64,000 bases of DNA from Escherichia coli (GTDB lineage Bacteria; Pseudomonadota; Gammaproteobacteria; Enterobacterales; Enterobacteriaceae). The notes under the pieces are model-generated. The model made no database searches. It worked only from the letters and a program-made list of their open reading frames with translations, and was not told the DNA's origin. The position numbers were made by a program, and so were the translations under genes. Positions 7,721 through 8,548 of the stretch are shown here, piece by piece. Location: NCBI RefSeq assembly GCF_003334305.1, contig NZ_QOWS01000015.1. One strand, written 5' to 3'. Each line of letters opens with the position of its first letter. The stretch's first letter is position 1.

Positions 7721-8323
7721 TTATACCGCCTCGGTCAGTTCCGGCTGAGGCGTTTCCACTCCCTCCGCATGAATCAACACCAAACCCGGATGATGCCACA
7801 AACTGGCTGGCGTGACGGTTTTACGCTCCCACGGAATAGAACCTAAGAACCAGAATTTCCAGAAAGTGAGTTTTGCATTCGGATTGCTATTTAACAGTTG
7901 TCCAAACGTCTCTATTTCACCCACCGGAATACATAGCGCCTCTTTATAAATATCAAAGACAAATTTTGAACAGAACTGGCGCGAAGATTCGTATTTAAAA
8001 CCCGTGTGGTAAAGTTTGCGTAGCCGGGAAGGAACCTGTTCAACAATTCGTTGTTTTTGTTGTTCTGTCAGCCCAGCGTCTAATCGCTTTATAGCATAGC
8101 GTTGATTAGACGAACGTTTAATAAAACGAGATAGCGTGGTGATGGTTGAAAGGGGAACCCGGCTTTCTGCAACCAGGAAGTCTTCACCGTTATGACCGAT
8201 AATGATCCCGACGTGATTACTCCAACAATTTGATGCAGCTGATATTTGACCAAATAAGGCAGCACCTATACATGTAAAGGCGATATCTCCAATTTCATAT
8301 TCAGCAGGGTAATTAATATTCAC
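7721..8323 (-). CDS. yebB: DUF830 / permuted papain-like family protein
   Basis: 200-aa product from GTG (cac 8321-8323) giving [13 protein letters not shown]; the longer 233-aa frame starts at ATG 8422; AT-rich upstream. Confidence 0.7.
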
Positions 8324-8528
8324 GTTGTCATTCCATTGAAATAGATACGAATATACGTAATAGCATAAAAAATTTATTTTTTCAGGAGGTGCAATGTATA
8401 TTTTTATTACGCATTTTTTCACTGAATATGTAATATTAAAATATTTGCTTCCAAAATAACCTGTAGAATAAATTATACTGTGCCATTTTTCAGATCATCG
8501 AGACACCTCGCAAGTTTTCTTCATCCTT

Positions 8529-8548
8529 CGCTGGATATCTATCCAGCA
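8529..8548 (+). promoter_or_regulatory. LexA operator (SOS box) of ruvAB
   Basis: CGCTGGATATCTATCCAGCA contains CTG-N10-CAG at 8531-8546, 52 nt upstream of the ruvA GTG. Confidence 0.7.

Follow-up and report, generated by a model that had tools for sequence, protein, structure and literature searches.

Between ruvC and the SOS-controlled ruvA and ruvB genes of Escherichia coli lies yebB, a gene on the opposite strand that is among the core genes of this species still lacking a function. Two questions arise: what chemistry its product carries out, and whether its closeness to DNA repair genes reflects a shared role, shared regulation, or only the history of the locus. Public annotation and a 2011 structural paper on the family already cover yebB under its name, its family and the lack of an assigned substrate. 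An initial annotation of this locus, drawn from the letters of a 64,000-nucleotide stretch of E. coli DNA (the window), had described yebB as an AT-rich, GTG-initiated gene, suggested to be separately regulated and possibly later acquired, with a promoter region adjoining the LexA box of ruvA. Here, we examine the locus by comparative sequence analysis, structure prediction and a search of the literature. To what was known, the present work makes small additions: comparative proof of the GTG start, the leaderless state of the enterobacterial YebB proteins, the age of the yebB insertion and the variable islet around it, and the finding that the LexA operator stays with ruvA.

Gene order and the yebB reading frame

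RefSeq annotation of identical DNA gives the gene order aspS, nudB, yebC, ruvC (+), yebB (-), yobI (+), ruvA, ruvB (+), znuB and znuC (-). A 1.1-kb query around yebB is 100% identical to strain W2-5 and finds a match in 5426 of 5426 complete E. coli genomes. The ruvC gene occupies positions 7198-7719 of the plus strand, with its stop codon at 7717-7719, and yebB, encoding 200 amino acids, occupies 7721-8323 of the minus strand, with its stop codon at 7721-7723; the two genes thus end tail-to-tail with their stops 1 bp apart. On its other side yebB diverges from ruvA (8598-9209, +) across a spacer (8324-8597) with a GC content of 0.31, in which no structured RNA was found by Rfam at E <= 1.

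The initial annotation took yebB to be the only ORF in the ruvC-ruvAB block unrelated to recombination, a claim that fails because yobI, a 21-codon gene (8394-8459, +; NCBIfam NF038179, 59 bits vs a cut-off of 33), sits in the spacer on the opposite strand. It falls within the supposed yebB promoter region and is co-oriented with ruvAB. YobI has reportedly been described as a stress-response small protein. The corresponding place in other genera is occupied by a gene for a membrane protein of about 228 amino acids (family c); the idea that yobI is a relic of such a gene was rejected, the only match being the four residues 'FTEY', which is not significant.

Two hairpins lie at or near the yebB-ruvC junction. 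The first (7727..7752, +), found in a single-sequence fold directly after the ruvC stop, is conserved and may be a ruvC 3' stem-loop or terminator; it falls within the last ~10 codons of yebB, and compensatory changes occur in 4 of its 9 pairs in a 12-sequence alignment. The second (7549..7582, -), a terminator-like hairpin with a T-run inside the ruvC coding sequence, was identified by consensus scan only and is a candidate yebB terminator.

The identity of yebB, its minus-strand orientation and its GTG start between ruvC and ruvAB, all part of the initial annotation, agree with RefSeq and with a comparison of start sites. The GTG codon (8321..8323, -), read from the sequence and placed by the starts of orthologues, has a weak purine-rich motif, aatGGAatga, 8-12 nt upstream. 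A mechanically called ORF of 233 amino acids, extending to 8422 and 33 residues longer, was rejected because all 17 aligned homologues (17/17) begin at the 200-residue start or within one residue of it, and because in-frame stops lie directly upstream of the GTG in E. albertii, Escherichia sp. E1V33 and E. coli SCPM-O-B-8794. Escherichia uses GTG to start yebB, and in 10 of the 11 non-Escherichia loci examined ATG stands at the aligned position. The ORF of Kluyvera sichuanensis begins at TTG, two codons upstream of the aligned start; in Pseudocitrobacter vendiensis the codon is GTG, preceded directly by an ATG codon.

The composition of yebB is atypical. Its GC content is 0.442 vs 0.518 +/- 0.022 for 48 reference ORFs of the window, and its GC3 of 0.395 vs 0.539 +/- 0.046 is the lowest in the window. 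Just two window ORFs have a lower codon adaptation, and rare codons make up 7.5% of yebB vs 3.2% of the reference ORFs. Measured against these 48 ORFs, the AT-richness and unusual codon usage noted earlier are confirmed. From the GTG start, the weak ribosome-binding site and the low codon adaptation we infer that expression is low, so that yebB would be a stand-alone, poorly expressed unit.

Active site and proposed chemistry of YebB

By its sequence, YebB is a 200-residue member of the YaeF/YiiX group (MEROPS C92) of circularly permuted NlpC/P60 papain-like enzymes. Its residues 10-184 match Pfam PF05708 (Peptidase_C92, 'permuted papain-like amidase, YaeF/YiiX') with E-values of 2.4e-44 and 1.4e-44, spanning model positions 3-165 of 166. 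The NCBIfam equivalog model for YebB, NF008547, is matched with 403.2 bits vs a cut-off of 227, and against the YiiX equivalog the score is 75 bits, short of the 216 required. E. coli YiiX (PDB 2if6; E 7e-17) is the sole solved relative found by sequence, and a residue-for-residue alignment with it gives the order His37, Glu53, Tyr105, Cys118. The permuted topology is confirmed because the histidine precedes the cysteine in YebB. The Pfam match and the YiiX alignment bear out the earlier assignment of YebB to a permuted papain-like family to which no substrate has been assigned.

Each of the predicted active-site residues has a counterpart in a solved family member. His37 (codon 8213..8215, -; H70 in the numbering of the 233-residue ORF) aligns with the catalytic histidine of YiiX, and Cys118 (7970..7972, -; C151), the predicted nucleophile, lies in the invariant motif QFCSKFV and aligns with YiiX Cys128. 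Glu53 (8165..8167, -; E86), the third member of the triad, is the equivalent of Glu64 of BcPPNE (PMC3142127). Tyr105 (8009..8011, -; Y138) aligns with YiiX Tyr115 and corresponds to the tyrosine that serves the oxyanion or P1 carbonyl in NlpC/P60 enzymes. All four residues are invariant in 18 of 18 enterobacterial sequences, and their conservation is 90% or more in an alignment of 61 diverse relatives that reaches down to 26% identity. The GD motif of strand beta-1 (G12, D13), identified according to published definitions of the family motifs (PMC3142127, PMC10318531), is invariant in both sets. Thus, the Cys-His dyad whose conservation had been proposed as a check is present as part of a full His37/Glu53/Cys118 triad with Tyr105. 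An AlphaFold2 model built from the 61-sequence alignment (pLDDT 95.3, pTM 0.90; mean pLDDT of 65 for the last ten residues) has the fold of the solved family members, with which Foldseek agrees. Foldseek also matches YebB to viral C92 proteins, including poxvirus OPG091/G6R, with E-values of 1e-4 to 1e-7. Judged by these features, YebB looks catalytically competent.

In the proposed reaction, His37, positioned by Glu53, would activate Cys118 for attack on the carbonyl of an acyl group held in a hydrophobic pocket, most likely that of a fatty-acyl amide or ester, and Tyr105 would stabilise the carbonyl during this attack. An acyl-Cys118 thioester would form. On the preferred reading water would then resolve it, and YebB would be a lipid amidase or esterase; less probably, an amine or hydroxyl acceptor would take up the acyl group instead. 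In our estimation there is an even chance that YebB is best explained in these general terms, as a leaderless thiol acyl-hydrolase or acyl-transferase acting on a fatty-acyl substrate, and our confidence in any one particular substrate is much lower than our confidence in the general chemistry.

Both the chemistry and the lipidic nature of the substrate are read across from the family. A lipidic substrate is favoured because YiiX was crystallised with a fatty acid whose head group hydrogen-bonds to the tyrosine equivalent to Tyr105 of YebB (PMC3142127), because the S1 pocket of the family is hydrophobic (PMC3142127), because the permuted relatives Tox-Act1 and TseH have phospholipase activity (PMC12994826), because the LRAT/PLAAT enzymes employ the chemistry proposed here (PMC3142127), and because a fatty-acid hydroxylase domain is fused to one relative (E 2.5e-31). 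In the literature consulted, the label 'lipid amidase' attached to C92 itself rests on the ligands bound in two crystal structures (PMC3142127). The literature that we searched contained no functional study of YebB and no measured activity for any C92 enzyme, YebB, YiiX and YaeF included; the C92 family, in which poxvirus G6R is included along with YiiX and YaeF, is without a proven substrate. One screen found that a strain with a transposon insertion in yebB had a long lag phase (PMC5996734). This phenotype is left unexplained by the acyl-enzyme model and counts against it.

YebB might instead be an acyltransferase and not a hydrolase, with the acyl group of acyl-Cys118 passed to an amine or hydroxyl acceptor. 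Transfers of this kind are exemplified by the lysine N-fatty-acylation of MARTX RID, the lipoprotein N-acylation of LnsA and the O-acylation of LRAT, and on sequence alone a hydrolase and a transferase would be indistinguishable. We nevertheless hold the transferase to be an unlikely, if serious, alternative. The link to RTX belongs to a paralogue found in few genomes, other copies having unrelated neighbours; yebB in E. coli is accompanied by no acceptor or partner gene that might hint at its role; and the authors of the structural paper preferred an amidase activity (PMC3142127).

Regulation and age of yebB beside the ruv genes

The spacer between yebB and ruvA contains two matches to the LexA pattern. 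The stronger, box 2 (CTGGATATCTATCCAG; 8531-8546), found by pattern match and promoter scan, is the ruvAB operator and overlaps the ruvAB promoter TGGATA-17-TATCAT (8532-8560, +), the only sigma-70-like promoter found by the scan; it lies 208 bp from the yebB start. Identical ruvAB hexamers, TGGATA/TATCAT, are reported from genomic SELEX (PMC3946193). Genomic SELEX also places RpoD and RpoS holoenzyme sites in the yebB-ruvA spacer and has flagged the ruvA-yobI spacer as an H-NS site. The weaker match, box 1 (CTGTGCCATTTTTCAG; 8478-8493), has the form CTG-N10-CAG and is absent from the initial annotation. Beside it, at 8472..8477 of the minus strand, we read a perfect TATAAT, conserved in three Escherichia sequences, that may be the -10 element of yebB and has no good -35. 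A transcript starting from this TATAAT would be antisense to all of yobI.

Comparison of related loci shows with which gene the operator is associated. Only the ruvA-proximal ~90 bp of the spacer is conserved between genera, and box 2 is an invariant block in an alignment of eight spacers. Across 15 related loci, the distance from box 2 to the ruvA start is 52-55 bp in every case, and that from box 2 to yebB ranges from 201 to 1716 bp; in 8 of the 15 the gap is about 1 kb or more, and ORFs intervene in each of those eight. Among the loci compared, box 1 occurs in one Escherichia relative but is lacking in E. coli SCPM-O-B-8794 and in every other genus. The claim that the yebB promoter region abuts a LexA box thus holds as a description of E. 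coli, where the two are close because the spacer is compact, but not as a stable arrangement, the box being fixed in its distance to ruvA and variable in that to yebB. As judged from these alignments, the strong LexA operator serves ruvAB and does not travel with yebB.

These observations bear on the possibility that LexA bound in the shared spacer represses a yebB promoter along with ruvAB, that yebB aids recovery from DNA damage, and that its position is therefore functional. In a regulon-association study of an expression compendium, yebB came out as a predicted LexA target, and its regulatory region was noted to contain high-scoring LexA sites (PMC2689187). Box 1 directly abuts the TATAAT on the yebB strand and contains CTGAAA, the hexamer put forward in the SELEX paper as the yebB -35. 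However, box 1 agrees with the consensus at only 11 of 20 positions and is missing in the second E. coli and the other genera noted above; the promoter scan, which passed over the TATAAT, gave no call on the yebB strand; and box 2 follows ruvA, with ORFs often between it and yebB, so the linkage of operator and gene is not conserved in orthologous loci. Moreover, yebB is far from the ruv genes in Morganellaceae and Budviciaceae, and no connection between its enzyme family and DNA metabolism is known. We therefore regard a functional place for yebB in the SOS regulon as doubtful, although some SOS link in E. coli may exist, given the published prediction and the weak box next to the TATAAT.

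One form that such a link might take, which we consider improbable, is that shrinkage of the gap in E. coli put the yebB TATAAT beside a young, weak LexA site. A cytoplasmic fatty-acyl enzyme would then be induced by DNA damage from a transcript whose leader of ~140 nt would be fully antisense to yobI, described in this scenario as an E. coli-specific small-protein gene, with mutual repression of the two. If true, this would amount to an SOS-linked lipid or protein-acylation response, which has not been described before.

The history of the gap offers an account of why yebB lies where it does. Scanning a single genome from each species gave 57 loci, and the interval from ruvC to ruvA holds yebB in at least eight genera, represented by Escherichia, Salmonella enterica, Citrobacter sp. 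FP75, Kluyvera, Pseudocitrobacter, Superficieibacter, Enterobacter sp. kpr-6 and Klebsiella spallanzanii. In several genera the stop-to-stop junction with ruvC is 1-8 bp. The gene lies elsewhere in Proteus, Providencia, Budvicia, Pragia, Leminorella and Limnobaculum; no neighbour gene common across the enterobacterial families was found, synteny holding within each family only. A rough neighbour-joining tree of YebB follows family-level taxonomy. This distribution places yebB in the gap before the divergence of Escherichia, Salmonella, Citrobacter and Kluyvera.

The gap itself is an islet that gains and loses ORFan genes across loci, and these ORFan families gave no NCBIfam or Pfam matches. 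The possibility that the islet is a defence island was rejected, since YebB and eight of nine islet proteins have no PADLOC match and the ninth (family c, L006) has marginal matches to Csx1 only (E 0.006).

Within E. coli, yebB is present in all of the 5426 genomes and full-length in 5417. Within the species its identities spread about as widely as those of an equally long ruvB segment, and the idea of unusual diversity was dropped on this account. Comparisons with six other species give dN/dS values of 0.03-0.11, indicative of purifying selection, with dN several-fold above that of ruvC and ruvA in all comparisons save ruvA of E. albertii (0.029 vs 0.019). In comparisons between genera, yebB and its flanks have similar dS values (for Citrobacter, 1.45 vs 1.52 and 1.20). 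The GC content of yebB is 4-17 points under that of the flanking ruvA and ruvC in 14 of 14 ruv-linked loci; in the low-GC Morganellaceae it matches its surroundings. Neither of the mobile-element hallmarks sought at yebB, tRNA genes and flanking repeats, was found.

The foreign composition, together with the lowest GC3 in the window, the turnover of ORFan genes in the gap that yebB occupies, a frameshift in the gene of Klebsiella spallanzanii and a truncation in one Enterobacteriaceae metagenome-assembled genome, could be taken to mean that yebB is a recently transferred passenger, or a decaying gene without a maintained function in E. coli. The presence of the gene throughout the species, almost always at full length, its ruvB-like identity spread, low dN/dS and flank-like dS, the tight junction with ruvC kept in several genera and the lack of repeats or tRNA genes beside it make this very improbable, and for E. 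coli the reading is largely refuted. The suggestion that yebB was later acquired thus stands only for an old event and falls for a recent one, against which universal presence, purifying selection and shared position speak. We conclude that yebB has long resided in the ruvC-ruvA gap as a foreign-looking gene that was kept, and that it did not arrive recently. It adjoins the ruv repair genes because of this old insertion; the link is positional, and we infer that yebB is independent of ruv function. Its closeness to SOS-controlled ruvAB should accordingly not be taken as a functional link.

Cellular location and relation to known enzymes

All 14 enterobacterial YebB proteins examined for a leader (14/14) have 11-12 residues ahead of the GD motif, without a hydrophobic segment. 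A signal-peptide-like hydrophobic N-terminal stretch occurs in 21 of 47 more distant relatives, and at least one of these has a lipobox. Since it is leaderless, YebB is probably cytoplasmic. That it is an exported peptidoglycan peptidase like the canonical NlpC/P60 enzymes is scarcely credible, as it has neither signal peptide nor lipobox and merely 11 residues ahead of its catalytic domain, its permuted topology departs from their Cys-before-His order, and the S1 pocket of its family is narrow, hydrophobic and unsuited to peptides (PMC3142127). Taken together, an apparently competent active site, a probable cytoplasmic location, the absence of a partner gene and a positional link to ruv direct attention to acyl-enzyme biochemistry and away from DNA repair.

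Several known proteins resemble YebB, and each differs from it. E. coli YiiX (2IF6) is separated from YebB by the latter's own equivalog model and by a score below the YiiX cut-off. Residue numbers in the crystallised YiiX chain differ by 16 from those of the native protein, which we take to reflect an N-terminal export signal, and YebB has no such signal. A fatty-acid ligand is known for YiiX only, and not for YebB. BcPPNE of Bacillus cereus (PDB 3KW0) is 16-18% identical to YebB; the loops surrounding its S1 site are simpler, and its S1' site, which bound lysine, is restrictive. The LRAT/PLAAT (HRASLS) acyltransferase-phospholipases belong to a different Pfam family, PF04970, are eukaryotic and membrane-anchored, and have no sequence-level match with YebB.

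The type VI secretion effectors TseH and Tox-Act1 are toxins that are secreted and that have immunity partners beside them in conflict loci, whereas yebB, a core gene, stands alone, with neither an immunity-like neighbour nor a PADLOC match. Poxvirus G6R/OPG091 and other viral C92 proteins share a Pfam family with YebB at 12-18% identity; they are virulence or accessory proteins, their substrate being as little established as that of YebB (PMC3142127). Also distant relatives are the RID domain of Vibrio MARTX, a toxin domain, and LnsA of Staphylococcus aureus, which requires the partner LnsB (PMC7387801).

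Gene content of the ruvA-yebB interval

In Enterobacteriaceae, the gap between ruvA and yebB is an AT-rich, variable islet in which three families of ORFan genes recur, designated b, c, and d and all oriented in the same direction as ruvA. Family b encodes a multi-transmembrane protein of approximately 228 amino acids, family c a protein of similar length (approximately 228 amino acids) with a transmembrane segment at its N-terminus, and family d a secreted protein of approximately 274 amino acids. Members of the islet were located, in the coordinates of the respective yebB loci of relatives, at L005 4018-4704, L063 3100-3774, L007 3331-4011 and 4114-4809, L006 3914-4600, L010 4084-4908, and L043 3401-5165. 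Searches of the three families against Pfam and NCBIfam returned no matches, and PADLOC yielded only marginal matches to Csx1 (E 0.006), for a single family c protein. All three families are absent from typical E. coli.

The spacer between yebB and ruvA in the window contains yobI (8394-8459, plus strand), annotated as a 21-amino acid "stress response small protein". Alignment of the spacer revealed no conservation of yobI among the relatives compared: the start codon is gone in Escherichia sp. MOD1-EC7003, E. coli SCPM-O-B-8794 has ATG-TAA in place of the gene, and in other genera this stretch cannot be aligned.

Allelic divergence and loss of yebB

A divergent allele of yebB, with 80-90% DNA identity, occurs in about 20 E. 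coli genomes. The gene content surrounding this allele was examined in one genome, E. coli AST85, where the locus between ruvC and ruvA (L002 2390-6058) also holds genes of families c and d, together with one for a PstS-like protein of 505 amino acids that is anchored in the membrane. The divergent allele groups with the one from Escherichia sp. E1V33, and this sequence relationship suggests introgression from a cryptic clade. yebB is frameshifted in Klebsiella spallanzanii (L038 4992-5592), and one Enterobacteriaceae metagenome-assembled genome retains only a C-terminal remnant (L048 5001-5294); some lineages are therefore losing the gene.

RNA hairpins and LexA-like motifs

A hairpin lying directly 3' of the ruvC stop codon (7727-7752, plus strand) is maintained across 12 loci, with compensatory changes at four of its nine pairs. 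Since this conserved hairpin overlaps the last ~10 codons of yebB, which encode a tail predicted with low pLDDT, a ruvC 3' structure may shape the YebB C-terminus. On the yebB strand, a terminator-like hairpin followed by a T-run is present within the ruvC coding sequence (7549-7582, minus strand), ~140 nt past the yebB stop codon. The transcripts of ruvC and yebB, which converge, are likely to overlap. Within the yebB-ruvA spacer, the palindrome of the second LexA box is followed by seven T's (8530-8556, plus strand), and its RNA forms a stable hairpin fold (-10.6 kcal/mol, z -6.0). This hairpin resembles an intrinsic terminator downstream of yobI and coincides with the ruvA promoter.

Throughout the window, the LexA-like pattern CTG-N10-CAG occurs 30 times, versus 12.9 +/- 4.1 expected from dinucleotide shuffles. 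Because many of these matches have the form CTGG...CCAG, the excess is probably due to oligonucleotide and codon bias in E. coli rather than to LexA sites. One match, CTGTATAAAATCACAG at 23792-23807, looks like a genuine strong LexA box.

Relatives and neighbors of YebB

One distant YebB relative of 438 amino acids (P0175) carries a fused fatty-acid hydroxylase domain at its N-terminus (PF04116, E 2.5e-31), and in Superficieibacter electus a gene encoding a GDSL-lipase lipoprotein lies between yebB and ruvC (L011 5653-6435); both arrangements, each with one occurrence, fit a lipid theme. Some Salmonella genomes possess a YebB paralogue, 69% identical, 38 bp downstream of genes encoding an RTX-repeat protein, a type I secretion ABC transporter, and a membrane-fusion protein, and the paralogue adjoins similar cassettes in two Citrobacter genomes (paralogue loci L065 1-5579, L066, L035, and L023). 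The proximity of the paralogue to these cassettes may hint at a role in the acylation or deacylation of an RTX protein.
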